The position numbers and the translations under genes were made by a program. A stretch of DNA of 64,000 bases from Escherichia phage LF82-4. Below, in pieces: positions 10,379 to 63,749 of the stretch (within the stretch, counting starts at the first letter, position 1; every line of letters begins with the position of its first letter). The notes beneath the pieces are model-generated. The model saw nothing but the letters and a program-made list of their open reading frames with translations, was not told the DNA's origin and made no database searches. The stretch lies in the sequence record PV660448. One strand, given 5' to 3'.

Positions 10379-11038
10379 CTATAGCTTAAAACAATCATCG
10401 CGTTCATTAATCCAATTTCTTATAGTTTTTGCGGATACGTTAAAGAATTCGGCAGCGTAATCGTAGTGGTTAAATTCATGACTTTTAATAGAAATATCCA
10501 CAAATACAAATTTCTTACCTTTATTAGAATTCTTTCTAATTTTTGCTTTATGCTCTTCTGATAGTTTTCTACCTTTAAGATGAGAATCTCTATTTTTATA
10601 AAACTTTTTATTTGCTATAGATTTGTTTTCTCGATGTTCTTTAGATTCTTTAGAACCTAATTTCTTTTTAGATATTTTAGCCCGAACTTCTTCAGTCATA
10701 CCAGCTTTTGTCTTTTCGGATAACATCTCACGATACCAAGGTTCCTTTAAAGCTACTATAACAGGATTACCCTTACCGCCTAAGGCTGCATTATAAGTAT
10801 CTGTTCTCATGACAAAAGCCTCGTCAACTAGTTCGGCTTCCTTAGCATACATCTCTTCAGATGTTTCGAAATTGAAAAGGATTTCCTTTTTAAAATTCTC
10901 TAAACCGTATTTCTTTATGGATTTTACTATGTTAACCCCAGAACCCATATAAGAATCGTTAACATCTGTAGTGGCATGGGCTCCAACATAAATCTTGTTA
11001 TTAATGAGATTGGTTATTTTGTAAATTAAATAATTCAT
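10379..11038 (-). CDS. segD: GIY-YIG homing endonuclease (SegD-like)
   Basis: 219 aa; N-terminal GIY-YIG module (IYKITNLINNKIYVGA...) plus repeated basic SEEHKAKI-type motifs; sits between genes 23 and 24 as segD does in T4. Confidence 0.8.
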   Translation of the reverse strand: MNYLIYKITNLINNKIYVGAHATTDVNDSYMGSGVNIVKSIKKYGLENFKKEILFNFETSEEMYAKEAELVDEAFVMRTDTYNAALGGKGNPVIVALKEPWYREMLSEKTKAGMTEEVRAKISKKKLGSKESKEHRENKSIANKKFYKNRDSHLKGRKLSEEHKAKIRKNSNKGKKFVFVDISIKSHEFNHYDYAAEFFNVSAKTIRNWINERDDCFKL

Positions 11039-11041
11039 ATT

Positions 11042-34847: not shown

Positions 34848-35180
34848 TCACTTATAAAGACACGGAATAGCTTTATAGTGGCATGTTACGAATTTCTGTT
34901 TAATTTCTTTAGGTTGTTTAAGTCCCAAAGCCACAAATGGATGTGGAACATTTCGAATTTGTCCAACTGGTAGTGGAGTCAAATCACCGACTTCAACAAA
35001 ACCTTCAGGAACATCAGGACCTACAGAATGAACTACGCATAGTTCAGGAACTTCACCTTGAACACGTTTACCAATCACAAGTCCTGATTCGGTAACTTCT
35101 TCATCACCTGCTTGAGCGGGTTCAGAAACCAGAATGACATATTCACCAACAGCACGAATTGGGAGTTGTACTTCAGACAT
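34848..35180 (-). CDS. 31: Co-chaperonin gp31 (GroES analogue)
   Basis: 110 aa, T4 gp31-like. Confidence 0.92.
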
Positions 35181-35237
35181 CTTATTTCCTTGTTGTTTGA
35201 CGATAGATTAATAATACCATACTATTCGTAAAGCATA

Positions 35238-35546
35238 TTACATAAGAAGCAAACGTTCTACCGGAGTACCATCAACCGAAATTACTTTATCAAGGCGGAA
35301 AGAACGCCACTGACCTAACTTGGTATCGAATGCTCGAACTGATTCACGAGGTTCATAACGAACTTCTGTTGCTGGATTGTTATTGACATATTTGACTTCA
35401 AGTTCATCGCGCGAAGCAAACATAGTGCGTACATCACCGTTAGCCTTTTCAAATACAACACAATGAACGCCTACAGACAGAATAGTTTTAATACGTTCAC
35501 GAAGAACCATAGTTTCTTGTTCAGTTAAAATCATATTATTCACCAC
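35238..35546 (-). CDS. Hypothetical protein (31.1 position)
   Basis: 102-aa ORF between cd and gene 31. Confidence 0.6.
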   Translation of the reverse strand: MVNNMILTEQETMVLRERIKTILSVGVHCVVFEKANGDVRTMFASRDELEVKYVNNNPATEVRYEPRESVRAFDTKLGQWRSFRLDKVISVDGTPVERLLLM

Positions 35547-36117
35547 AAAAGTTTCGGATTTGTTCCCAATTCAGAGAACGAAGATTATTACGAGAGTACT
35601 GAATTACTTCAATACCAGCTTGTTTTAGAATATCTGCCCAATTTTCAGGAGATCGGTCGTATAATTCTGCGTATACAACCTTTTTAATACCTGACTGCGT
35701 AATAGCTTTAGTGCAATCAGGACACGGAGAAAGCGTAGTATATAACGTAGCACCTTCAATAGAATTACCTTTACGAGCGGCAAACAAAATTGCATTCAAT
35801 TCTGCATGGATTTCATTATTAGCAGACCATGCACTATGAGCAGCTCGATGTTCTTTGGCTAAAACAAAATTATCTACCCGTCCAAATGCTGTAGTGCCTT
35901 CTTTATGTCCAGCAACGATGACTGGGATTGGTTTATTCTTCAACCAACCATTTTCAGATGCATGTTCGCAACAGTTAACGCCACCTGCAGGTGAACCGTT
36001 ATATCCAGTAGAGATAATGCGTCCATCTTTTTCAATGACGGCACCAACTTTCCATGAACAACATTTTGATTCTTGAGAAATCAGATATGCAATCTGAAGG
36101 TATGTGCTAGCTTTCAT
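35536..36117 (-). CDS. cd: dCMP deaminase
   Basis: 193 aa (T4 Cd length); zinc-binding HAE...PCxxC (HAELNAILFAARKG, SPCPDCTKAI). Confidence 0.95.
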   Translation of the reverse strand: MKASTYLQIAYLISQESKCCSWKVGAVIEKDGRIISTGYNGSPAGGVNCCEHASENGWLKNKPIPVIVAGHKEGTTAFGRVDNFVLAKEHRAAHSAWSANNEIHAELNAILFAARKGNSIEGATLYTTLSPCPDCTKAITQSGIKKVVYAELYDRSPENWADILKQAGIEVIQYSRNNLRSLNWEQIRNFCGE

Positions 36118-42673: not shown

Positions 42674-43852
42674 TTAGAAATATTTTTTGTATGAATTGAT
42701 TACATTTTGGTCTACATCATTATCAATTTGTGCAACAAGATAAGAACTGATTTCAACTTCCTGAGGAGCTGCTTGAACTAAATCAGAGTTCAGATATTCA
42801 CGAATCCAAGGATACGGATGCTTGGTCGGAGCGTCAGTGATTGGGCATGGCAAACCGCACTGTTTCATACGAGACACAGACAAGTAATCAACAAAAGCAC
42901 ACATACTCTGCGTATTGATACCTGGACATGTACCATCTTTAAAAAGGTGTGCAGCCCATTCCTTCTCTTGACTATTTACTTCCATAAAAATGTCAACTGC
43001 TTCTTGTTCACATTCTTTAGCAATTTGAACCCACTCATCACCGTCAGTACCAGATTGAAGTTGACGGATAATGTACTGAGTACCCTTGAGATGGAGTTGT
43101 TCGTCACGAGCAATGAACTTCATAATCTTTGCATTGCCTTCCATAATTTCCATATTTTTATGGAAGTTGAAAGTACATGCAAATGATACGTAAAAACGAA
43201 TAGCTTCTAAGGCGTTGATAACATGCAAACAGAGATAAAGAGACTTCATTAGGTCATGTTTACATTCTTCCATGTGCATAAGACTATTTGAATATGCATC
43301 TAAATCATATTCATTTTCGGAAAAACATTTAAAAATTTCTTTAGCATTTTCCCATTCACGTGTTTTAACTAGAACATCATCATAATATTTGCCGATTGAT
43401 TCCGCACGTTTCATAATTGCTTCATCTAATACAATCTCATCAAATACCTTCGATGGATCAGTATAAAGATTTCGCATGATATGAGTATATGAACGAGAGT
43501 GAATGGTTTCACTGAATGTCCATGTAGCAACCCATGTATCTAATGAAGGGTCAGAAATCAGTGCCATAAGTACCGCAGATGGGGCCCTGCCTTGGATAGA
43601 ATCTAATAACGATTGATACTTAAGATTGTTTGTAAAGATATCCTGTTGAAACTGAGGAAGCTTATTGAACTGCGCAGAGTCCAACATCAAGTTTACCTCT
43701 TCCGGGCGCCAAAAAAACGACAATTGCTTTTCAATAAGCTCTTCAAAAACTTTATGGCGTTGAATATCGTAACGCGCAAGGCCAAGACCGGAACCAAAGA
43801 ACATTGGTTCATTCAAAACATCAACTTTTTGGGTATTAAAAACTGTACTCAT
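42674..43852 (-). CDS. nrdB: Ribonucleotide reductase small subunit, uninterrupted
   Basis: 392-aa continuous ORF with ferritin-like diiron protein features; no intron. Confidence 0.95.
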   Translation of the reverse strand: MSTVFNTQKVDVLNEPMFFGSGLGLARYDIQRHKVFEELIEKQLSFFWRPEEVNLMLDSAQFNKLPQFQQDIFTNNLKYQSLLDSIQGRAPSAVLMALISDPSLDTWVATWTFSETIHSRSYTHIMRNLYTDPSKVFDEIVLDEAIMKRAESIGKYYDDVLVKTREWENAKEIFKCFSENEYDLDAYSNSLMHMEECKHDLMKSLYLCLHVINALEAIRFYVSFACTFNFHKNMEIMEGNAKIMKFIARDEQLHLKGTQYIIRQLQSGTDGDEWVQIAKECEQEAVDIFMEVNSQEKEWAAHLFKDGTCPGINTQSMCAFVDYLSVSRMKQCGLPCPITDAPTKHPYPWIREYLNSDLVQAAPQEVEISSYLVAQIDNDVDQNVINSYKKYF

Positions 43853-43902
43853 TATATTCTCTCAATAGTGACTCATCCATGAGTCAATTATAAACAAAAT
43901 TC

Positions 43903-46158
43903 TTAAAGCTTACAAGCGGAGCAATCTTCAGCTTTAGGCGTTTCTAACTCATAGTCATCTGTACCAGAACCATCTCGAGTGTTATGATAGTAAAGGTTCT
44001 TACCACCAAAGTACCAGAAGTAAAGCAAGTCATCAAGCATTACAGACATTGGCACTTTGCCTTTCTCAAAGACTGAAGGGTCGTAGTATGTATTAGCAGA
44101 AGCAGATTGGCACACCCATTTTAACATGATAACAACTTGTGTCAGATAAGGCTTATTACCTTTCTTAGAGAGTTTCCACGCATAGTCATAAAGACCCATG
44201 TTGTGTTCAATATTAGGAACTACTTGACGGAAATTACCTTCTTTAGATTCTTTAATACTTACTGGGCCACGAGGTGGTTCAATACCATTTGTGCTATTTG
44301 AGACCTGGCTGCTTGATTCGCATGGCATGAGAGCACTGAGTGTACTGTTACGAATCCCGTGTTCTTTAAGTTCGGCTCGTAGTTCTTCCCAATCACATAC
44401 ATAGTTTGGGGCTGCGATTTGGTCAATCTTTTTATTGTACCAGTCGATAGGTAATTCGCCTCGAGACCATTTAGTGTCTGAATAATACTCGCAAGGTCCT
44501 TTTTCTTTGGCGAGTTTGATTGAAGCTTTGATAAGGCCATATTGCAATCTCTCAAACAATTCATGAGTCAAATCGTTAGCGTCTTCATATGAAGCAAAGT
44601 TAGAAGCTAACCATGCAGCATAGTTCGTCACACCAACACCGAGATTTCGACGCTTTTTGGCTTTTAAAGCTTCTGGAACCGGATAGTCTTGATAGTCTAA
44701 CAGGTTATCAAGTGCACGTACTTGTACTTCAGCAAGTTCATTAATTTTATCTTGGTCTTGCCAATCAAATTTATCTAATACAAAAGCAGATAACGTGCAT
44801 AAACCAATTTCAGCATCAGGGCCATTCACATCATTAGTTGGAATAGCGATTTCACAACATAAGTTACTCTGACGAATTGGAGCTTTTTCACGAATAAATG
44901 GAGTGTAGTTATTCGTGTTATCAACAAACTGTGGATAAATTCGAGCAGTACCAGAACGTTCAGTCATGAACAATTCAAAGAGTTCTAGTGCTTTGATTCT
45001 TTTCTTTCTGATTGTTGGGTCTTTTTCAGCTTTCTCATAAAGCTCACGGAATTTATCTTGATCTTCAAAGAACGAGTAATATAGTTCGCCTGACATTTCG
45101 TGAGGGCTAAATAAAGTAATATAATCATTTTTGCCAAGGCGTTCCATCATGAGGTCATTAATCTGAATTCCATAGTCCATATGTCGAATACGGTTTTCAT
45201 CCACGCCTTTGTTATTTTTCAGAACTAATAGGTTCTCTACTTCTAAGTGCCACATCGGATAATACGCTGTAGCAGCACCACCACGAATACCACCTTGAGA
45301 ACAAGATTTTACTGCAGTTTGGAAATGTTTCCAGAATGGAATAACACCTGTATGTCGAACTTCACCCATACCAATCTTAGAACCTTCTGCACGAAGCATA
45401 CCAACGTTGATACCGATACCAGCTCGTTTAGAAATATATTCAATAATTGATGCTGAAGTTTTGTTAATAGATTTTAACGAATCACCGGCTTCAATAACTA
45501 CACAACTAGAGAACTGGCGAGTTGGAGTACGAGCACCTGCCATAATTGGGGTTGGCAATGAAACTTGATGAGTAGAAACGGCATCATAAAAACGAATAAT
45601 ATGTTTCAAACGGTCATGAGTTTCGTCTTGATGTAAGGCCATGCCAATAGCCATGATAGCAAACTGCGGAGTTTCATAAATCTTACCGGTTGTTTTATCT
45701 TTAACCAGGTATTTTTCTTTAAGCTGCATAGCACCAGCATAAGTCAAGTCAAAGTCTCGTTCATGTTTAATCTGTGAATCGAGATAAATGATTTCTTCTG
45801 CTGAATATTGAGACAACAGCTCAGGGTCGTATTTGCCTTCATTAACACAATAAGAAATATGGTCGATAAAAGCAGGCGGTTCAAACTGCCCATATACATC
45901 TTTACGAAGTGCAAACATTAATCCTTTAGCGGCAACATATTGATAGTCAGGTTCTTCGACAGAAATCAAGTTAGCTGCAACTTTAATACAAATCTTCTGG
46001 ATATCTTTGGTGCTCATCCCATCAACCAGATGAGTCTTAATTTCTTCATACAATTCGTATGGGTCGATTTGTGTTCCTTCACATTGCCAAGTTAAGACTT
46101 GAATAATTTTCTGTGCATCAAAATTTTGGGATACCCCACTGCTCTTAATTACTTGCAT
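43903..46158 (-). CDS. nrdA: Ribonucleotide reductase large subunit
   Basis: 751 aa; ATP-cone N-terminus; class Ia active-site motifs (NLCCEI). Confidence 0.97.
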   Translation of the reverse strand: MQVIKSSGVSQNFDAQKIIQVLTWQCEGTQIDPYELYEEIKTHLVDGMSTKDIQKICIKVAANLISVEEPDYQYVAAKGLMFALRKDVYGQFEPPAFIDHISYCVNEGKYDPELLSQYSAEEIIYLDSQIKHERDFDLTYAGAMQLKEKYLVKDKTTGKIYETPQFAIMAIGMALHQDETHDRLKHIIRFYDAVSTHQVSLPTPIMAGARTPTRQFSSCVVIEAGDSLKSINKTSASIIEYISKRAGIGINVGMLRAEGSKIGMGEVRHTGVIPFWKHFQTAVKSCSQGGIRGGAATAYYPMWHLEVENLLVLKNNKGVDENRIRHMDYGIQINDLMMERLGKNDYITLFSPHEMSGELYYSFFEDQDKFRELYEKAEKDPTIRKKRIKALELFELFMTERSGTARIYPQFVDNTNNYTPFIREKAPIRQSNLCCEIAIPTNDVNGPDAEIGLCTLSAFVLDKFDWQDQDKINELAEVQVRALDNLLDYQDYPVPEALKAKKRRNLGVGVTNYAAWLASNFASYEDANDLTHELFERLQYGLIKASIKLAKEKGPCEYYSDTKWSRGELPIDWYNKKIDQIAAPNYVCDWEELRAELKEHGIRNSTLSALMPCESSSQVSNSTNGIEPPRGPVSIKESKEGNFRQVVPNIEHNMGLYDYAWKLSKKGNKPYLTQVVIMLKWVCQSASANTYYDPSVFEKGKVPMSVMLDDLLYFWYFGGKNLYYHNTRDGSGTDDYELETPKAEDCSACKL

Positions 46159-46501: not shown

Positions 46502-46813
46502 TTATACCGCCATTTTAGCTTTGATAGCTGGATGTGATTCGTAATTTTTAAGAATGAAATCACTCGGATTCATATGCTCTGTTACCCAATGAAGCTGTAA
46601 TGTCGTGCTCCAATCAGAGAATCCTTCAGGCCAATCAATTTTAAGTTCACACAGTTCTTTAGGCTCACGACGAAGAACTTCTTTGCATTGTTCTACATGA
46701 TTGCTGTAGATATGCGTGTTGCCGCCTGAGAACACTAAATCACCTGGGATAAGGTTACACATCTTCGCTACAATATGCGTCAAGGCAGCGTACGAGGCAA
46801 TGTTGAATGGTAG
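46502..46813 (-). CDS. td: Thymidylate synthase, exon 2
   Basis: Encodes LPFNIASYAAL...AIKAKMAV, the conserved C-terminal part of ThyA; continues exon 1 (…DVFLG). Confidence 0.93.
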   Translation of the reverse strand, partial: LPFNIASYAALTHIVAKMCNLIPGDLVFSGGNTHIYSNHVEQCKEVLRREPKELCELKIDWPEGFSDWSTTLQLHWVTEHMNPSDFILKNYESHPAIKAKMAV

Positions 46814-47830
46814 CATTATGTTCAGATAAGGTCGTTAATCTTATCCCGGAATTATATCCAGCTGCATGTCACCATGCAGAGCAGACTATATCTCCAACTT
46901 GTTAAAGCAAGTTGTCTATCGTTTCGAGTCACTTGACCCTACTCCCTAAAGGGATAGTCGTTAGGCATTTATGTAGAACCAATTCCACTTATCAGATTTT
47001 ACACGGTAAGTAACTAATCCTGATGAAATTTCAAAATGTCTAGCCGCATCGGCTGCACATTCAAAAATAATCCCGTCGCATGAAATCTTTTTGATGTTAG
47101 CTGGCTTTTTGCCTTTCATCTTTTCAGATAGTTTAGTTTTAGTTTTTTCTGAATGTTTGTGATTAAAGAACGGGTTATTTTCAGCTGAACGTTTTCGACA
47201 CTTTCCACAAGTGTTGGCTGAAGTTGGTATACGAACACCACATTTACAAAACTTGTGGTTTTCCGGATTCCATCTACCATTTTTACTTCCGTGTTTACCA
47301 TAAATAGCTTTTCGACCATCAGATCCAAGCTTAAGCATCTTAGCTTTAACAGTTTCAGCTCGTTTCTTAGCAATTTCTTCCTTTAATGGATGATTCGAAA
47401 ATGTATCACCAAAGGACGCATCGGCGATATTATATCCATTAATTTTAGAATTTAGCTCGTTAATCCAAAAATTTTCTCGTTCAATAATCAAATCTTTCTC
47501 ATATGGAATTTCTTCCAATATAGAGCATTCAAAAACATTACCGTGTTTATTAAAAGATCTTTGAAATTTTATAGAAGAGTGAACACCATTTTCAAGGTCT
47601 TTAAAATGTCTCTTCCATCTTTTCTCAAAATCTTTAGCACTTCCAACATACACTTTACCATTTAAAGTGTTTTTAATCTGATAAATTCCACTTTTCATAA
47701 ACACCTCTTTAAAATATAGAAGTATTTATTAAAGGGTGGTCCTACAATTTAGCACGGGATTGTCTACTAGAGAGGTTCCCCGTTTAGATAGATTACAAGT
47801 ATAAGTCACCTTATACCCAGGCCTAAATTA
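46814..47830 (-). mobile_element. Group I self-splicing intron in td (~1017 nt) carrying I-TevI
   Basis: Intron 5' end reads UAAUUUAGGCCUGGGUAUAAGGUGACUUAUACUUGUAAUCUAUCUAAACGGGGAACCUCUCUAGUAGACA (td-intron-like); exon reading frame resumes after AUG at 46814. Confidence 0.9.
46961..47698 (-). CDS. I-TevI: I-TevI GIY-YIG homing endonuclease (intron-encoded)
   Basis: 245 aa from the ATG with SD AGAGGTG; MKSGIYQIKNTLNGKVYVGS... GIY-YIG domain, zinc finger CKCGVRIPTSANTCGKC. Confidence 0.93.
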   Translation of the reverse strand: MKSGIYQIKNTLNGKVYVGSAKDFEKRWKRHFKDLENGVHSSIKFQRSFNKHGNVFECSILEEIPYEKDLIIERENFWINELNSKINGYNIADASFGDTFSNHPLKEEIAKKRAETVKAKMLKLGSDGRKAIYGKHGSKNGRWNPENHKFCKCGVRIPTSANTCGKCRKRSAENNPFFNHKHSEKTKTKLSEKMKGKKPANIKKISCDGIIFECAADAARHFEISSGLVTYRVKSDKWNWFYINA

Positions 47831-49201
<1,371 letters not shown>

Positions 49202-53941: not shown

Positions 53942-56900
53942 ATGGTTGACATCAAACGTAAGTTCAGGGCCGAAGATGGTCTTGACGCAGGCGGTGATAA
54001 GATAGTTAACGTTGCGCTTGCTGACCGCACAGTTGGCACCGATGGCGTGAACGTTGACTTTTTGGTGCAAGAAAACACCGTACAGAATTATGACGATACG
54101 CGCGCGTATACAAAAGATTTTATTGTTCTTTATGATAATCGTTTTTATCAAGCTTTAAGCGATATTCCAGCTCCGGCAGGCCCTTTCTCTTTGGCTAAAT
54201 GGAAGGCAACTCGTACAGATGCAGATTGGATTACAGTTCAAGGCGGAGATTTCCAATTATCAGTAGGTAACTCTATTGCGGTTGATACTTCAGCTGGCAC
54301 TGATATTAATTTCACTTTGCCTCAAAATCCTTTAGATGGCGATACAGTTATTTTGTCTGATATTGGTGGTAGAGTAGGCTATGTAAAAGTTCAAATTACT
54401 GCAGAGGCTCAAAGTATTGTAAACTTTAGAGGACAACAGGTTCGTTCAGTTTTAATGACGCACCCAAAATCTAAAATGGTCTTCATTTTTAGCAACCGCC
54501 TATGGCAAATGTATGTTTCTGATTACGAACGTAATGCAGTCACAGTAACTCCTGCTAAGCCATATCAGGCGCAACCTAACGATTTTATCATTCGACGTTT
54601 TACATCAGCCGCTCCTATTAATATTACATTGCCTCGCAATGCTAATAATGGCGATATTATTAATTTAGTTGATTTAGACAAATTAAACCCGTTATATCAC
54701 ACAATTGTCAAAACTTACGATGATACAACTTCTATACGAGAAGCCGGTGTTCATGTAGCAGAAGGACGTAATACTGCGGAAGCATTCTTTGTTTATGATT
54801 CTGCTAATAGCTTATGGCGTGTTTGGGAAGGTGACCAGAAATCTCGTTTACGTATAGTTCGTAATGATACTGATTTACGCCCTAATGAAGAAGTTCTTGT
54901 TTTTGGAACTAATAATGATACAATCTCGACGGTAAATCTTACTTTGCCTACAGATATTTTGTCTGGTGATACTGTTAAAATATCGTTGAATTATATGCGT
55001 AAAGGGCAAACTGTAAAAATTAAAGCTGCTGAAGGCGATACAATTGCTAGCAGTATTTCTTTATTACAGTTCCCAAAACGTTCAGAGTATCCACCTGATG
55101 CACAATGGGTTTCTGTTAGTGAGCTGGAATTTAATGGCGATACTTCGTATGTACCTGTACTTGAGTTAGCTTATATAGAAGATTATTCATCTGAAACAAA
55201 ATATTGGGTAGTTCAACAAAACACTGTAACCGTCGAACGAGTCGATGCATCGAGCAATACAACTCGAGCTCGTTTAGGTGTTATTGCTCTTGCTTCTCAA
55301 GCGCAAGCAAATGTCGATTTAGAAAATGCTCCTGGTAAAGAACTTGCTATTACTCCGGAAACATTAGCAAATCGTACAGCAACTGAAACTCGTCGTGGTA
55401 TTGCTCGTATTGCAACAACTGCACAAGTTAACCAGAATACCGATTTTGCATTCCAAGACGACTTGATTATTTCTCCTAAGAAATTGAACGAACGTACAGC
55501 AACTGAAACCCGTAGAGGTGTTGCTGAAGTTGCAACTCAGGATGAAACTAATGCTGGCATAGATGATACCACTATTATTACTCCTAAGAAATTGGATGCC
55601 CGTCAAGGTTCTGAAGTTTTATCTGGTATTGTAAAATACACATCTACGACTGGTACTACAGCGGCTACTGTTCGTGGTAATGCTGGGACTAACGTTTATA
55701 ACAAAGCCGTAGATAATTTAACTATTTCTCCAAAGGCTCTTGACCAGTATAAAGCTACACATACTCAACAGGGCGCAGTAATTCTTGCTATTGAAAGTGA
55801 AGTTATCGCTGGTGAATCACAAGCCGGTTGGGCTAATGCTGTAGTGACTCCTGAAACTCTGCATAAGAAAACTTCTACTGATGGACGTATTGGTTTAATT
55901 GAAATTGCTACGCAAGCAGAAACTAACACTGGGACTGATTATACTAGAGCAGTAACGCCTAAGACGTTAAATGATAGGAAAGCTACGGAAGGATTATCCG
56001 GCATAGCCGAACTTGCTACGCAAGTTGAATTTGATACTGGAACTGATGATACTCGTATCTCGACTCCACTGAAAATTAAAACTCATTTTGATTCTTCTGG
56101 CCGTACCAGTGTTAATTCTGATTCCGGACTTATTGAAGAAGGAACCTTGTGGAACCATTATACTCTTGATATTTCTAAAGCAAATGAAACACAACGTGGT
56201 ACACTTCGCGTAGCGACTCAGGCAGAATCTAATGCCGGAACTTTAGATGATGTTCTTATTACTCCTAAAAAACTTTTAGGGACTAAGTCCACTGAAACGT
56301 CTGAAGGCGTGATTAAGGTTGCTACTCAGGCTGAAACTGTAACAGGAACTTCTGCTAATACTGCTGTATCGCCTAAGAATTTAAAATGGATTGTCCAGGA
56401 TGAACCAACATGGGCTGCTACTACGGCAATTCGTGGATTCGTTAAAACTTCATCCGGTTCTATTACATTCGTTGGTGACGATACTCAAGGTAGTACCCAG
56501 GATCTGAATCTTTACGAGAAAAATAGTTATGCTATTTCTCCATATGAATTAAACCGTGTACTTGCTAACTATTTGCCATTGAAAGCTAAAGCTGTAGATA
56601 GTAATCTGTTAGATGGTCTAGATTCTCTTCAGTTCATCCGTAGAGACATCGACCAGACGGTTAATGGTTCTTTAAGTCTTACTAAACAGACCAACCTGAG
56701 TGCTCCTTTAGTATCTACAAGCACTGCTTCTTTTGGATCTGAAGCATCTGTTACTCGTAGATTAACTCTTAATGACTCTAGCGGTTCCGAAATAGTTTTC
56801 ACTAAAGGAACTCAATCTCTTAGTAATAAAGAGAATTTCGTTGTTAGAGCATGGGGTAATAGCGCTACAGATGGTGCCCGTGATACAGTATTTGAAGCGG

Positions 56901-57775
56901 GTGACGAAACTGGATACCATTTCTATTCTCAGCGCGCTTCTGATAATAAAGTATCATTTAATATTAATGGAACACTTTATTCAACAGGCATTGTTTCTAC
57001 AAATGGATTAAACGTTACAGGTGTTTCTACCTTTACCGGGCCTATTAGTGCTACAGGCGAAATTGTTTCTAGTTCTCCTATTGCATTCAGAGCTATTAAC
57101 GGTAACTATGGTGTTATGCTTTATAATGCTGGTAACAGTTCTTATATTGCATTAACTAACTCAGGTGACCAGACTGGGACGTTTAATAACTTACGCCCGA
57201 TCACGATTAACAATGCCACAGGACTGGTTCGTCTTGACAACGGTGTTCAAATCACAAGTGGTGCAACAATAACTACCGGTGGGTTAACTGTAAATAACAG
57301 AATTATTTCTAACGGCGTTAAAACTGCCACTGTTTATACCGATAAACCAACAGCTTCTACTGTAGGTTTTTGGTCTATTGACATTAACGATTCTGCTGTA
57401 TATAGCCAATTCCCTGGATACTGGACGCGTGATAACAAAGGTAACCGTGACCAAGAAATTAAATATCCTGGTACTTTGACTCAATTTGGTAATAGCTTAG
57501 ATTCGCTTTATCAGGATTGGATTTGTTATCCTACAGGTGCAAATGGTGGTAGTATTCGTTATACTCGTACCTGGCAGAAAAATAAAGATGCTTGGACTTC
57601 ATTTGCAATGGTATTTGATAGTGGCAACCCACCTTCACCTAGCGATGTCGGTGCTATCCCGTCTGATAATGCTGTTATTGGAAACCTTACTATTCGAGAC
57701 TTCTTACAATTAGGAAATGTGAGAATTGTTCCAGACCCGGTTAACAAAACAGTTAAATTTATATGGGTTGAATAA
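53942..57775 (+). CDS. 34: Long tail fiber proximal subunit gp34
   Basis: 1277 aa; internal tandem ~40-aa repeats; late promoter at 53900-53907. Confidence 0.95.
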   Translation: MVDIKRKFRAEDGLDAGGDKIVNVALADRTVGTDGVNVDFLVQENTVQNYDDTRAYTKDFIVLYDNRFYQALSDIPAPAGPFSLAKWKATRTDADWITVQGGDFQLSVGNSIAVDTSAGTDINFTLPQNPLDGDTVILSDIGGRVGYVKVQITAEAQSIVNFRGQQVRSVLMTHPKSKMVFIFSNRLWQMYVSDYERNAVTVTPAKPYQAQPNDFIIRRFTSAAPINITLPRNANNGDIINLVDLDKLNPLYHTIVKTYDDTTSIREAGVHVAEGRNTAEAFFVYDSANSLWRVWEGDQKSRLRIVRNDTDLRPNEEVLVFGTNNDTISTVNLTLPTDILSGDTVKISLNYMRKGQTVKIKAAEGDTIASSISLLQFPKRSEYPPDAQWVSVSELEFNGDTSYVPVLELAYIEDYSSETKYWVVQQNTVTVERVDASSNTTRARLGVIALASQAQANVDLENAPGKELAITPETLANRTATETRRGIARIATTAQVNQNTDFAFQDDLIISPKKLNERTATETRRGVAEVATQDETNAGIDDTTIITPKKLDARQGSEVLSGIVKYTSTTGTTAATVRGNAGTNVYNKAVDNLTISPKALDQYKATHTQQGAVILAIESEVIAGESQAGWANAVVTPETLHKKTSTDGRIGLIEIATQAETNTGTDYTRAVTPKTLNDRKATEGLSGIAELATQVEFDTGTDDTRISTPLKIKTHFDSSGRTSVNSDSGLIEEGTLWNHYTLDISKANETQRGTLRVATQAESNAGTLDDVLITPKKLLGTKSTETSEGVIKVATQAETVTGTSANTAVSPKNLKWIVQDEPTWAATTAIRGFVKTSSGSITFVGDDTQGSTQDLNLYEKNSYAISPYELNRVLANYLPLKAKAVDSNLLDGLDSLQFIRRDIDQTVNGSLSLTKQTNLSAPLVSTSTASFGSEASVTRRLTLNDSSGSEIVFTKGTQSLSNKENFVVRAWGNSATDGARDTVFEAGDETGYHFYSQRASDNKVSFNINGTLYSTGIVSTNGLNVTGVSTFTGPISATGEIVSSSPIAFRAINGNYGVMLYNAGNSSYIALTNSGDQTGTFNNLRPITINNATGLVRLDNGVQITSGATITTGGLTVNNRIISNGVKTATVYTDKPTASTVGFWSIDINDSAVYSQFPGYWTRDNKGNRDQEIKYPGTLTQFGNSLDSLYQDWICYPTGANGGSIRYTRTWQKNKDAWTSFAMVFDSGNPPSPSDVGAIPSDNAVIGNLTIRDFLQLGNVRIVPDPVNKTVKFIWVE
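55321..56400 (+). repeat. Tandem degenerate ~120-nt coding repeats within gene 34
   Basis: About 8 reiterations of a ~40-aa module (TATETRRGIARIATTAQVNQNTD / TATETRRGVAEVATQDETNAGID / GLIEIATQAETNTGTD / GIAELATQVEFDTGTD / GTLRVATQAESNAGT / GVIKVATQAETVTGT). Confidence 0.7.
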
Positions 57776-57783
57776 GAGGTTAT

Positions 57784-58908
57784 ATGGAAAAATTTATGGC
57801 AAGGTTTGGACAAGGATACGTCCAAACGCCGTTTTTATCGGAAAGCAATTCAGTTAGATTTAAGCTAAGTATAGCGGGTTCATGCCCGCTTTCAACAACT
57901 AATCCGTATATTTTGTTCCAAAATGAGCCTTTAGGGTTGCAGTCTTTTGGTATTGGACTAAATGTTAGGGTGATAAATCCGGAAAATGGAACTATAGTTG
58001 ATAGTAAATTATATAATTTTGCGCCTACAAATAATGCAACTTCAGCTGCATTTATTTCGTTTGTTAATACATACGCAGATAATTTCATTTTCGCATTTAT
58101 TTCTAATAACAAATTTAATTTGCCGCCGGAAATAATTGAATGGTTTAAAGCTGCTGGGAGTTCAGTTATACCGTCAATTGAAATTGCTAGTCTTGTTGAT
58201 ATTTCATATTCAGCGTTTTATGTTTCAGGTAAAAATACTATTGCATTAGAACACATAAAATACAGTAATAAAAAAACAATTTCTGATTACGCAACCCCAT
58301 TAGATATTGTATATGACTCTATTGCTGATATAGGTGCTACCGGTTATCCTAGACGTACATATGAAGCTCTAGAAACGTTTTTATCTCCTGTTGGAGGAAC
58401 TAACAATGAAATAAAAAGGATGCCTACGTCATCCCTTGTTACTCCTATCGCAAACTACGGATTAAAGCCTACAGATTTTCTTTATTTGAAATTTCAATTA
58501 ATGGCTGATGAAGAATTATTAGAGGAAGGAACCACAAGACTTTCAATTCGTTTCTTTAAGTCTTCATCTAGCTCTCCTATATCATCTAAAGATATAAACT
58601 TTGATGGAACTGCCGGGGAGTGGAAGTTATACGAAGAATACGTTGAAATACCAGCTGAAGCCGATGGCTTTACAGTATATTGTTACCGTACGGCCCCAGT
58701 CGGTCAAGGTGGACTAAGAAATGTTATTTTCACTGAAGTATCATGTAACGGAAGTATAGCAAAACCCGCCGAGTTTGGTATAAACGGTATTCGTGTTAAT
58801 TACATTGATGAATCATTAACCGGTAATGATATAATGGACTTGCCTACCCAGTTATCTAACGACACAGGTAAGGTATTTGGGCAGGAATTTAAAGAGTACA
58901 CAGAATAA
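57784..58908 (+). CDS. 35: Long tail fiber hinge (knee) protein gp35
   Basis: 374 aa between 34 and 36. Confidence 0.9.
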   Translation: MEKFMARFGQGYVQTPFLSESNSVRFKLSIAGSCPLSTTNPYILFQNEPLGLQSFGIGLNVRVINPENGTIVDSKLYNFAPTNNATSAAFISFVNTYADNFIFAFISNNKFNLPPEIIEWFKAAGSSVIPSIEIASLVDISYSAFYVSGKNTIALEHIKYSNKKTISDYATPLDIVYDSIADIGATGYPRRTYEALETFLSPVGGTNNEIKRMPTSSLVTPIANYGLKPTDFLYLKFQLMADEELLEEGTTRLSIRFFKSSSSSPISSKDINFDGTAGEWKLYEEYVEIPAEADGFTVYCYRTAPVGQGGLRNVIFTEVSCNGSIAKPAEFGINGIRVNYIDESLTGNDIMDLPTQLSNDTGKVFGQEFKEYTE

Positions 58909-58926
58909 AGGAGACTTCGGTCTCCT
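58909..58926 (+). terminator. Terminator after gene 35
   Basis: AGGAGAC-TTCG-GTCTCCT followed by TTTCG, 1 nt after gene 35 stop. Confidence 0.65.
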
Positions 58927-58933
58927 TTTCGCG

Positions 58934-58941
58934 TATAAATA
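58934..58941 (+). promoter_or_regulatory. Late promoter TATAAATA (gene 36)
   Basis: Exact TATAAATA ~27 nt upstream of gene 36. Confidence 0.75.
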
Positions 58942-58967
58942 CTTTAATATTAATAAGGAGACACGAA

Positions 58968-59624
58968 ATGGCCGATTTAAAAGCCGGAAGTACAGTTGGT
59001 GGTTCCGTCATATGGCATCAAGGCAATTTTCCTTTAATGCCAGCTGGCGATGACATCCTATATAAAACATTTAAATTATACACCGAATATAACAAGCCAA
59101 AAGCGGCTGATAACGATTTCGTATCTAAAGCAAACGGCGGGACATATCTCAAAAAGGTAATCTTTAACGAAGGTGTTGCAGTCAAAACAGCTGATGACCA
59201 AACGAATGGTATTTTTTCTGGTGGTGGTGACGCCGCGACATTTGACCAAACAAACATGGATATTGTTTCGTGGTATGGTATTGGGTTTAAATCATCTCAA
59301 GGTACAGGTGAAAGAACTGTTGTAATTGATACTCGCACCGGTAATATAAGTTCTAAAGGCGTTATTGAAGCATCTCAATTCAGAGCCACAACGTTAGCAC
59401 CTTTAAATAATTATGACCTTACTCGCAAAGATTATGTTGATAGTCAAATAAATACAGTTAATGCTAATGCAAACAGTCGTGTACTCCGTTCAGGAGATAC
59501 GATGACCGGTGCGCTAACCGCCCCAAACTTTTTCTCACAGAATCCTGCATCTCAACCATCGCATGTTCCACGATTTGACCAAATTGTTATTAAGGATTCT
59601 GTTCAAGATTTCGGCTATTATTAA
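58968..59624 (+). CDS. 36: Long tail fiber distal connector gp36
   Basis: 218 aa; late promoter at 58934-58941; SD AAGGAG. Confidence 0.9.
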   Translation: MADLKAGSTVGGSVIWHQGNFPLMPAGDDILYKTFKLYTEYNKPKAADNDFVSKANGGTYLKKVIFNEGVAVKTADDQTNGIFSGGGDAATFDQTNMDIVSWYGIGFKSSQGTGERTVVIDTRTGNISSKGVIEASQFRATTLAPLNNYDLTRKDYVDSQINTVNANANSRVLRSGDTMTGALTAPNFFSQNPASQPSHVPRFDQIVIKDSVQDFGYY

Positions 59625-59632
59625 GAGGACTT

Positions 59633-63749
<4,117 letters not shown>

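Follow-up and report, generated by a model that had tools for sequence, protein, structure and literature searches.

A td-type group I intron with an I-TevI orthologue in a Mosigvirus, and the probable footprint of its recent homing

The thymidylate synthase (td) gene of Escherichia phage LF82-4 is divided by an insert that is very probably a mobile group I intron, orthologous to the td intron of phage T4, which resides in the td gene of a Mosigvirus and bears the footprint of recent homing. The window analysed is the whole stretch of 64,000 nucleotides from sequence record PV660448. The intron is not T4's own copy, and the phage that bears it, a Mosigvirus, is related to T4 and RB69-like. Mobile introns of bacterial viruses were first exemplified by the td intron and its endonuclease I-TevI, and the same arrangement, two thymidylate synthase pieces and a homing endonuclease, is present in about 194-198 GenBank phage records; as a kind of element the insert is thus already known and adds nothing new.

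The split td gene and its ribozyme

The first-pass annotation had described a td frame that breaks off after ...RSVDVFLG at 47831 and is taken up again at 46813 with LPFNIASYAAL, separated by about 1017 nt resembling the T4 td intron. This description was correct to the base: the intervening sequence runs from 47830 to 46814 on the minus strand, begins with TAATTTAGGCCTGGGTATAAGGTGACTTATACTTGTAATC at 47830, and is like the T4 intron in a colinear alignment in which the td region measures 1878 nt in both phages.

47831..48379, minus strand: td (thymidylate synthase) exon 1, 549 nt, ending GTT TTC TTA GGT (VFLG)
46814..47830, minus strand: group I intron, td-type, subgroup IA2-like, 1017 nt, an exact insertion relative to LF82-9 and LF82-1
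46502..46813, minus strand: td exon 2, 312 nt including the stop codon, beginning CTA CCA TTC (LPF...)

The intron boundaries are fixed independently by phage LF82-9, whose td lacks exactly these 1017 nt. The first U of the intron follows the terminal U of the exon, and its last base is the terminal G (omega-G; ...CATAATG at 46814), which gives ...CAUAAUG/CUACCA across 46814/46813, a boundary set by the intron-less allele. Removal of 47830-46814 yields an uninterrupted ThyA that spans positions 1-266 of the 266 in Pfam PF00303 and equals the LF82-9 protein; the joined exons give 286 aa, the length put forward initially, with PF00303 matched end to end (E 5.8e-97). Outside the conversion tract considered below, exon 1 is identical to LF82-9 td. 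For annotation, this means that the two td pieces belong joined as one 286-aa gene.

In T4 (NC_000866, td 143235-145112) the intron occupies the same point between VFLG and LPFN and has the same length, 1017 nt by the coordinates of that record. Both introns hold an open reading frame (ORF) in the P6 loop with its stop codon in the P6 3' strand, a common 22-nt segment and a hairpin involving the Shine-Dalgarno sequence and AUG. Identity to T4 is 94.7% and 98.6% for the two RNA parts of the intron (the latter being the 3' half), compared with 86.4% for the ORF and 78.5% and 68.6% for the exons, and the host phage here is a Mosigvirus whereas T4 is a Tequatrovirus. The colinear alignment with T4 td, together with matches of the ORF product to I-TevI chains in the PDB, argues that the likeness of intron and ORF is not due to chance, and supports the reading of the insert as an orthologue of the T4 td intron at the same thymidylate synthase codon.

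47739..47836, minus strand: ribozyme 5' half, comprising P1, P2, the P3 5' strand, P4, P5 and the P6 5' strand
46814..46966, minus strand: ribozyme 3' half, comprising the P6 3' strand, P7, P7.1, P7.2, the P3 3' strand, P8, J8/7, P9, P9.1, P9.2 and the terminal G

All helices from P1 to P9.2 are predicted to be able to form. P1 would pair the exon sequence UUAGGU (47836-47831) with the internal guide GCCUGG (47822-47817), leaving a U.G wobble at the 5' splice site; it is 100% paired in nine alleles, in which three of its pairs vary compatibly, and it is kept in T4, where the guide is GCCUGA and the exon UUGGGU. The core helices P3-P8, the P3/P7 pseudoknot, the guanosine-binding P7 (GACUA/UAGUC, in the 3' half) and the GACUA ... 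AGAUAUAGUC elements were all found. A minimum free energy fold of the ORF-deleted RNA contains P1 with the splice-site U.G, P2-P5, P7.1, P7.2, P8, P9, P9.1 and P9.2, and an explicit structure that includes the pseudoknot is 99.4% paired across the nine alleles, as against 30-47% when the partners are slid. Wherever the window and T4 differ within a helix, pairing is kept. Six compensatory double changes were counted (one in P7.2, three in P8 and two in P9.2) in the divergent copies L014 and HMGUkp2; counting was by hand because MAFFT placed the P8 change of HMGUkp2 out of register. Support from covariation comes from these two copies, for in the nine-allele alignment the signal did not exceed the shuffle control, a comparison that is uninformative because the core is so conserved (98% of columns invariant, mean column identity 98%). 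A candidate P10 (UAG with exon CUA; 3 bp in the window, 2 in T4) was paired in only 89% across alleles and was set aside as not well supported.

A covariance model search had been suggested as a check, and its outcome was divided. Rfam RF00028 gave no match at its gathering score in the whole window or the whole intron, but both ribozyme halves were matched when searched separately: the 5' half on model positions 1-113 (18.8 bits, E 0.0038), with P1 as the first helix of the model, and the 3' half on positions 135-253 (29.8 bits, E 2.9e-6). The two halves fall collinear on the model coordinates, and the consensus aligned to AACGACUA and GAGAUAUAGUCU in the window intron. It had also been proposed that a model missing the P1-P9 core would refute the intron. 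As worded this is invalid, since the experimentally proven td intron of T4, used as a control, likewise misses (40.3 bits against a 50-bit cut-off), and for that reason the miss is not counted against the intron here. The explanation is that a loop of about 770 nt bearing the ORF splits the core of td introns; ORF-less relatives pass at 54-97 bits. A permissive search of the whole intron gave 34.1 bits (E 1.2e-6) on the 3' core, but wrongly put the 5' part within the ORF, at its 3' end, and the search by halves was used instead. The td intron will be missed by automatic pipelines and by Rfam at default settings.

By analogy with T4, from which the present intron is nearly indistinguishable in its RNA parts, we infer guanosine-dependent self-splicing with exon ligation. 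The pre-mRNA would fold to the P1-P9 ribozyme and excise itself with a guanosine cofactor, and splicing would join ...VFLG to LPFN... to make the 286-aa enzyme. The mechanism in T4, on which this account of splicing and those of endonuclease activity and regulation below are modelled, is taken from PMC2988022 and PMC5009752.

The endonuclease and its predicted regulatory elements

46961..47698, minus strand: ORF of the I-TevI orthologue, 245 aa, with Pfam and PDB matches
47715..47736, minus strand: putative promoter/operator segment CCCTTTAATAAATACTTCTATA, 22 nt, identical to T4 in alignment
47697..47729, minus strand: predicted regulatory hairpin, AUAAAUACUUCU (47729-47718) with AGAGGUGUUUAU (47708-47697)

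The large P6 loop would encode a GIY-YIG endonuclease of the I-TevI type. The 245-aa GIY-YIG ORF with its own Shine-Dalgarno sequence that had been proposed, starting MKSGIYQIKNTLNGKVYVGS, was recovered with its ATG at 47698, its stop at 46961 and GAGG five bases before the ATG; the frame can be extended to an upstream GTG (247 aa), and the ATG start agrees with T4 I-TevI. Its last codons and stop (GCC UAA) sit in the P6 3' strand. The product matches PF01541 (E 8.7e-17), PF22635 (E 1.8e-16) and PF20987 (E 1.8e-31), as well as PDB I-TevI chains at E 1e-56 to 1.6e-65 (1mk0/1ln0, E 1e-56; 1i3j, E 1.6e-65, residues 130-245), and is laid out as a GIY-YIG nuclease domain followed by a linker that holds a Cys4 zinc finger and by a C-terminal DNA-binding domain. 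Catalytic R27, E75 and N90 are kept, as are Y6, Y17, H31 and H40, and the zinc residues C151, C153, C164 and C167 are present. Identity to T4 I-TevI is 88% at the amino acid level, and the best nucleotide identity to any GenBank phage is 95.5%. These matches support assignment of the product as an I-TevI orthologue, a homing endonuclease of the GIY-YIG class.

In T4 the same 22-nt stretch contains the late promoter of the endonuclease, AATAAATA, and an overlapping I-TevI operator (PMC2988022). The putative late promoter AATAAATA lies here at 47730-47723 on the minus strand. The predicted hairpin, whose role in T4 is described in the same work, buries the Shine-Dalgarno GAGG and the AUG of the ORF; it folds in 12 alleles at -15 to -17 kcal/mol, its stem being kept through U-A/U.G and U.G/C-G changes. 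We infer from the T4 precedent that promoter, operator and hairpin work in the same way. Read-through transcripts would have the ribosome binding site and start codon of the endonuclease locked in the hairpin, and these would be freed only in transcripts from the late promoter within the hairpin's 5' arm; the endonuclease probably represses this promoter through the overlapping operator.

Genes for homing endonucleases are expected to decay when their targets have become saturated (PMC5009752), and one explanation to be considered is that the element is decaying, either because the ribozyme splices poorly, leaving td partly inactivated, or because the endonuclease is inactive, as for T4 I-TevIII. 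The 29 amino acid differences from T4 I-TevI would fit such decay, and three of them (C39V, T95S and Q158P) are at positions known to modulate cleavage. However, the ORF is not truncated and lacks none of the catalytic and zinc ligands, and codon differences from T4 I-TevI are in synonymous excess (59 synonymous, 29 non-synonymous), which suggests purifying selection on the endonuclease and so lends indirect support to cleavage activity. The helices are all intact, with pairing preserved by every helix substitution, the regulatory hairpin and the promoter/operator segment are retained, and the footprint described below implies very recent activity. Decay is consequently held to be extremely unlikely.

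A probable co-conversion tract next to the intron

The case for a mobile intron with a recent history turns on a comparison with LF82-9, to which the window is 99.9% identical and in which td is uninterrupted. Against a background of 9 differing sites in 53 kb, the two td genes differ by the exact 1017-nt indel and by 12 synonymous sites packed into 97 bp, from -28 to +69 relative to the insertion site; given that background, the Poisson probability of 12 sites in 97 bp is about 8e-31.

47831..47858, minus strand: upstream co-conversion tract (minimum), six synonymous sites at -28, -25, -24, -22, -16 and -4
46745..46813, minus strand: downstream co-conversion tract (minimum), six synonymous sites at +1, +3, +36, +48, +60 and +69
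47853..47857, minus strand: CAACG, the cleavage motif of I-TevI, at -27 to -23 relative to the insertion site

At all 12 tract sites the window has states found in the intron-plus Mosigviruses a20 or TH12, whereas independent phages without the intron (ATK47, CAU_ECP01 and O157 typing phage 3) have the same 12 intron-minus states as LF82-9. The next informative upstream sites (-103, -105 and -106) are of the intron-minus type, and, as a point against the homing reading, +6 in the window is a recipient-type base; the tract measures 97 bp at minimum and about 250 bp at maximum if the donor was a20-like. It spans the cleavage site at -23/-25. The CNNNG motif, in which C1 and G5 are required (PMC5009752), and its 23/25-nt offset upstream of the insertion site are known from earlier work (PMC5009752, PMC2988022), and intron-less LF82-9, ATK47 and CAU_ECP01 have CAGAG in place of CAACG at -27 to -23.

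The td gene of the window is, by these site patterns, an intron-minus haplotype, identical to LF82-9 beyond -28 to +69, that carries the intron together with 97 bp or more of adjoining exon sequence of an intron-plus haplotype. We read the 12-site patch and the indel as a co-conversion footprint, left by a single recent homing into an LF82-like genome; the pattern lends further, indirect support to site-specific double-strand cleavage by the endonuclease. In a mixed infection the endonuclease would bind intron-less td around the insertion point and cut 23/25 nt upstream at CNNNG, and repair would then copy the intron and some flanking exon off the intron-bearing genome. Crosses of T4 with T2 likewise gave precise insertion with conversion of exon markers on both sides, across the 23/25-nt cut (PMC2988022). 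Those were experimental crosses, whereas the event here would be a natural one, as judged from two field isolates, and unlike in the crosses the tract is short and the recipient-type site is CAGAG, not CAACG.

A comparison of two genomes is symmetric, and the opposite history would have an intron-plus ancestor from which the LF82 lineage lost the intron by recombination with an intron-less td, so that the patch would lie in LF82. Both flank haplotypes are established in nature and the 12 LF82 phages, which come from one study, may be a single lineage, as this history would allow. However, in a comparison with LF82-9 and LF82-1 it is the window that stands alone at 71 of 72 sites, and outside the tract its exon haplotype is intron-less in isolates from the USA and Korea (ATK47 and CAU_ECP01, with only 7-8 further differing sites), whereas intron-plus alleles, a20 and TH12 among them, differ from the window exons there at 45-66 sites. 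The tract also takes in the cleavage site, and in mixed infections the endonuclease drives gain, more than 95% of naive genes being converted in experimental settings (PMC5009752). From this haplotype distribution and mechanism we argue for gain of the intron in the window over loss in LF82, and regard the loss as very unlikely.

Another possibility is that an LF82-like phage and a second, intron-bearing Mosigvirus were present in the sample and that assembly crossed from one to the other within td. A mixed lysate assembled into a chimera would give the same pattern, the tract ends lie in sequence identical between the haplotypes, and the window has further patches that diverge from LF82-9 (35037-36100 and the tail fibre genes). 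Against this, the intron allele is unique (96.7% at best), and a second phage not seen otherwise would have to be supposed; T4-like phages in nature show just this kind of mosaicism, and the 35037-36100 patch matches other phages (CAU_ECP01 and phiEC1) than the intron does. An artefact of assembly has accordingly only a very slight probability, and recent homing remains the favoured reading.

That the patch at 35037-36100 came from the donor of the intron was rejected, because its best matches are not among the best intron matches; one of them, CAU_ECP01, has an intron-less td.

The donor, cleavage preference and wider meaning

The closest relatives of the window intron are the TuIa-type alleles (TuIa, AY262157; Mosigviruses a20, TH12, AV109-118 and JM17), which are 96-96.7% identical over intron and flanks and share its endonuclease class, V39/S95/P158. 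Their flanking exon equals that of the window from -60 to +90 except at +6. They differ from the window by nine to ten amino acids in the endonuclease, by 1 nt in length and in the guide (GCCUAG, against GCCUGG in the window), and with td exons that differ at 45-66 sites outside the tract no member is the donor. No donor with an identical intron was found among GenBank phages, in which the best match is 96.7%, so the intron-plus phage that would have donated to the LF82-like recipient is one absent from GenBank. When IMG/VR was scanned for exact matches to the 5' variant of the window, one contig was returned, only 75% identical. A scan with a conserved 21-mer, GATATAGTCTGCTCTGCATGG, returned 80 contigs, all of which except L014 hold other introns that are not td orthologues. 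Among them are compact phage group I introns (L028, L081, L085, L092, L093 and others) that share the P7'-P9 block, the exact 21-mer and a P9 hairpin with a GNRA loop, and that RF00028 recognizes at 54-97 bits. Their P8 and P9.1/P9.2 differ, they are on other contigs and most are without an ORF in P6; they were rejected as orthologues of the td intron, for which only L014 qualifies.

One suggestion that follows from the intron-less haplotype, and that we consider rather doubtful, is that a TuIa-type I-TevI (V39/S95/P158) invaded a td allele with CAGAG in place of the canonical CAACG and so has a broadened or shifted cleavage range. Directed evolution has altered I-TevI's cleavage preference at positions 39, 95 and 158 among others (C39R, T95S and Q158R), and of these changes only T95S is the same residue change as in the natural window allele. 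The preference of natural T95S homologues is not to be judged from their sites, because all adjoin CAACG (Roy et al., 2016). As a general rule, central triplets rich in A/T are cut better than those rich in G/C (PMC12663268); a published activity value for I-TevI on CAGAG was looked for in that study and none is given.

The window and LF82-9 make up a natural before-and-after pair, nearly isogenic and differing in the presence of the intron, which could be used to gauge homing, the length of co-conversion tracts and the fitness cost of the intron in a Mosigvirus background. The pair also lets one ask whether the natural V39/S95/P158 enzyme is better on CAGAG than that of T4. If the suggested change in cleavage range is true, the two phages would be field evidence for it, and the intron could keep spreading into target sites that have drifted.

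Structure of the td intron and relation to T4

The first 183 residues of thymidylate synthase, as far as ...RSVDVFLG, are encoded by the minus-strand frame that opens at 48379; its final sense codon (GGT), ending at 47831, is followed by an in-frame TAA. The ThyA frame picks up again at 46813 with CTA CCA TTC AAC (LPFNIASYAAL...) and runs through 46502. The first-pass annotation had placed both edges of this split correctly to the base, and the intron start that it quoted, TAATTTAGGCCTGGGTATAAGGTGACTTATACTTGTAATC, matches exactly the first bases past 47831. The 1017 nt insert carries, as was also claimed, a 245-amino-acid ORF with its own Shine–Dalgarno sequence (GAGG, 5 bases upstream of the ATG), and the joined exons give the expected 286 amino acids, which match the entire Pfam Thymidylat_synt profile (1–266 of 266, E = 5.8e-97).

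Features of the interrupted td gene
48379–47831, minus strand: td exon 1 (ORF reading)
47830–46814, minus strand: td intron, 1017 nt (ORF reading)
47698–46961, minus strand: endonuclease ORF, 245 amino acids, ATG to stop (ORF reading)
46813–46502, minus strand: td exon 2 (ThyA frame)

The phage is T4-like, with frd, td, nrdA and nrdB in the T4 order, and the proposal that the insert is a T4 td-type intron with a GIY-YIG endonuclease is supported. Each 1878 nt long, the td regions of the window and T4 are colinear, with identities of 78.5% in exon 1, 68.6% in exon 2, 86.4% in the endonuclease ORF and 94.7% and 98.6% in the two non-coding segments of the intron. The ORF product is 88% identical to T4 I-TevI, keeps R27, E75, N90 and the four zinc cysteines, has three Pfam domains (GIY-YIG, I-TevI_ZnF and I-TevI_DNA-bd) and matches the I-TevI DNA-binding (1i3j, E = 1.6e-65) and nuclease (1mk0/1ln0, E = 1e-56) structures in the PDB. 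Codon differences from the T4 gene comprise 59 synonymous and 29 non-synonymous changes, an excess that points to purifying selection. The T4 copy differs in its host genus, in 29 endonuclease residues, in two pairing-neutral P1 changes and in a few loop bases; in both phages the terminal codons and stop of the ORF sit in the 3′ strand of P6. A megablast search of 50,697 phage records found the split td gene with its endonuclease in 194–198 of them, mostly annotated 'thymidylate synthase (x2) | homing endonuclease'.

A 22 nt segment, CCCTTTAATAAATACTTCTATA (47736–47715), is completely identical to its T4 counterpart, which contains the endonuclease gene's late promoter along with the operator for repression by I-TevI (PMC2988022). 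A predicted hairpin, AUAAAUACUUCU paired with AGAGGUGUUUAU, buries the Shine–Dalgarno sequence and AUG; it was predicted in all 12 alleles folded (−15 to −17 kcal/mol), the stem being kept through substitutions. In T4, the hairpin confines translation to late transcripts starting inside it and protects splicing (PMC2988022). By identity, we infer the same promoter, operator and hairpin roles in the window.

Predicted ribozyme core and covariance model scores

The group I core that a covariance model had been expected to find was not matched as a whole. At gathering score Rfam reported no RNA family anywhere in the 64-kb window, tRNA included, and in permissive mode only the 3′ core of the intron (34.1 bits, E = 1.2e-6). 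Self-splicing of the T4 td intron is experimentally established. This positive control scored 40.3 bits in permissive mode, and there was again no match at gathering over the 12-kb T4 locus, so that the type member also falls below the operational cut-off. When the halves were searched alone, 47841–47737 matched positions 1–113 of the model (18.8 bits, E = 0.0038) and 46968–46862 positions 135–253 (29.8 bits, E = 2.9e-6), collinearly and with the expected helices aligned. As the T4 control fails alike and the halves match, the miss reflects a limitation of the model with approximately 770 nt in the P6 loop, and is not counted as evidence against the intron. Scores of 54–97 bits on RF00028 were reached by compact phage introns without an ORF that have a 21-mer, GATATAGTCTGCTCTGCATGG, in common with this one.

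This 21-mer, spanning the P7 3′ strand through the P9 5′ arm, is exact in at least 80 IMG/VR viral contigs, with 63 distinct contexts among the matches listed (loci L015–L093); the listed contigs all have the P9 hairpin CUGCAUGG-NRA-CAUGCAG, their introns being otherwise different. Three such introns lie inside 1.3 kb (483–1753) of a single 4.9-kb contig (L093).

Folding of a construct with the ORF-bearing loop deleted and 12 nt of each exon added recovered P1, with the terminal exon U paired to the internal guide G, together with P2, P3, P4, P5, P7.1, P7.2, P8, P9, P9.1 and P9.2. P7 is absent from the minimum-energy fold because it is pseudoknotted with P3; its strands, GACUA and UAGUC, are both present and complementary. 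Placed on a nine-allele alignment, the full structure gave standard pairs in 99.4% of cells, compared with 30–47% when the 3′ partners were slid by 1–3 columns. Covariation among the nine alleles was almost nil and did not exceed the shuffle control, as 98% of columns are invariant. Two divergent copies, the IMG/VR orthologue L014 (75% identical overall) and that of phage HMGUkp2, supplied six compensatory double substitutions, in P7.2 (U-A to C-G), P8 (A-U to U-A, U-A to C-G and G-C to C-G) and P9.2 (A-U to C-G and A-U to G-C), and one broken pair, in the approximately placed P6. All helix-located differences between the window and T4 preserve pairing: exon position −4 is A in the window and G in T4, facing U; the internal guide has G where T4 has A, facing U; and a G.U in T4 P9.2 is A-U.

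L014 lies on the minus strand of a 160-kb viral contig (IMGVR_UViG_2706796116_000001). Its first 32 intron nucleotides are exactly those of the window, GCCUGG guide included, its P8 is shortened and its endonuclease has 243 amino acids (A39/Q86/S95/S158).

By each criterion examined except the Rfam cut-off, the element belongs to the T4 td intron/I-TevI system, and it would be expected to work like it.

An intron-less sibling and a probably converted exon tract

A 24-kb query around td matched LF82-series Mosigviruses at 99.4–99.5% identity, the matched span in LF82-9 falling short of the query length by about 1 kb; in LF82-9 and LF82-1 td is uninterrupted (861 nt). Setting aside a patch at 35037–36100 and the tail-fibre genes, the window differs from LF82-9 at nine sites in 53 kb. 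Within td it differs by exactly the 1017 nt insert and 12 substitutions, all synonymous, at −28, −25, −24, −22, −16, −4, +1, +3, +36, +48, +60 and +69 relative to the insertion point, where the background rate predicts 0.016 differences in the 97 bp (P ~8e-31). At all 12 the window has the base of the intron-bearing Mosigviruses a20 and TH12; +6 retains the recipient-type base, and td outside the tract matches LF82-9 at every base. The closest informative sites, −103 and, if the donor was a20-like, +150, are both of intron-minus type. The tract covers the I-TevI cut site at −23/−25.

The window td thus reads as an intron-minus haplotype into whose centre intron-plus sequence has been inserted; an insert with converted flanks is the expected product of intron homing with exon co-conversion (PMC2988022). 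An intron-plus donor would have given an LF82-like td both the intron and its flanking tract. Loss of the intron from the LF82 lineage instead appears improbable: the same 12 intron-minus states occur in ATK47, CAU_ECP01 and O157 typing phage 3, intron-less phages that were isolated independently, and in the comparison with LF82-9 and LF82-1 it is the window that stands alone at 71 of 72 sites. Outside the tract, the window exons differ from ATK47 and CAU_ECP01 at only 7–8 sites, and from a20 and TH12 at 45–66. A chimeric assembly, which would likewise join two haplotypes, we rate as more improbable still. We conclude from these comparisons that homing probably brought the intron into an LF82-like genome recently. 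The collections searched contained no donor: the intron was matched best by a20 (96.7%), and the best endonuclease gene match reached 95.5%.

In LF82-1 (L003, 7851–8492) and most LF82 phages, but in neither the window nor LF82-9, nrdA and nrdB are separated by a 642-nt 'homing endonuclease' gene; 28 differences between the window and LF82-1 cluster beside its insertion point (43718–43918, nrdB/nrdA junction), in what looks like a second co-conversion-like footprint, from a free-standing endonuclease. The 35037–36100 region, from the head-assembly chaperone to dCMP deaminase, has 40 substitutions relative to LF82-9 in about 1 kb and best matches CAU_ECP01 and phiEC1 (99.8%); it is a separate recombination patch with a source other than that of the intron. 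The 55759–63278 region shows around 500 differences, with 26 indel columns, relative to LF82-9, most densely in the long tail fibre genes; such host-range mosaicism is usual in T4-like phages. In LF82-9, the two major-head-protein paralogues flank an opposite-strand gene annotated as a homing endonuclease (window ~10380–11040); the window, 99.9% identical there, should carry this gene too. The window nrdB (42674–43852) is uninterrupted; in T4 the gene contains an intron whose I-TevIII is defective.

Endonuclease allele and the cleavage motif

This kind of element is already known and the lineage has been sequenced many times; what is new here is limited to this allele and the natural before/after pair. 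The allele is of the TuIa class (V39/S95/P158), whose members are the nearest described relatives of the window intron; the T4, G8, LH2, JE01 and G2285 endonucleases have C39/T95/Q158. C39R, T95S and Q158R are among the few directed-evolution substitutions that broaden I-TevI tolerance of the CNNNG central triplet, and according to the same authors natural T95S homologues all adjoin CAACG, so that their preference cannot be judged (PMC5009752). The motif position is CAGAG in the intron-minus haplotype and CAACG in the converted window. A literature search found no published I-TevI cleavage measurement for CAGAG; as A/T-rich central triplets are generally cut better than G/C-rich ones (PMC12663268), AGA may be readily cleaved. 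Should the homing reading be true, a TuIa-type enzyme would have cut a CAGAG site in nature, which we offer as a lead and not a finding.
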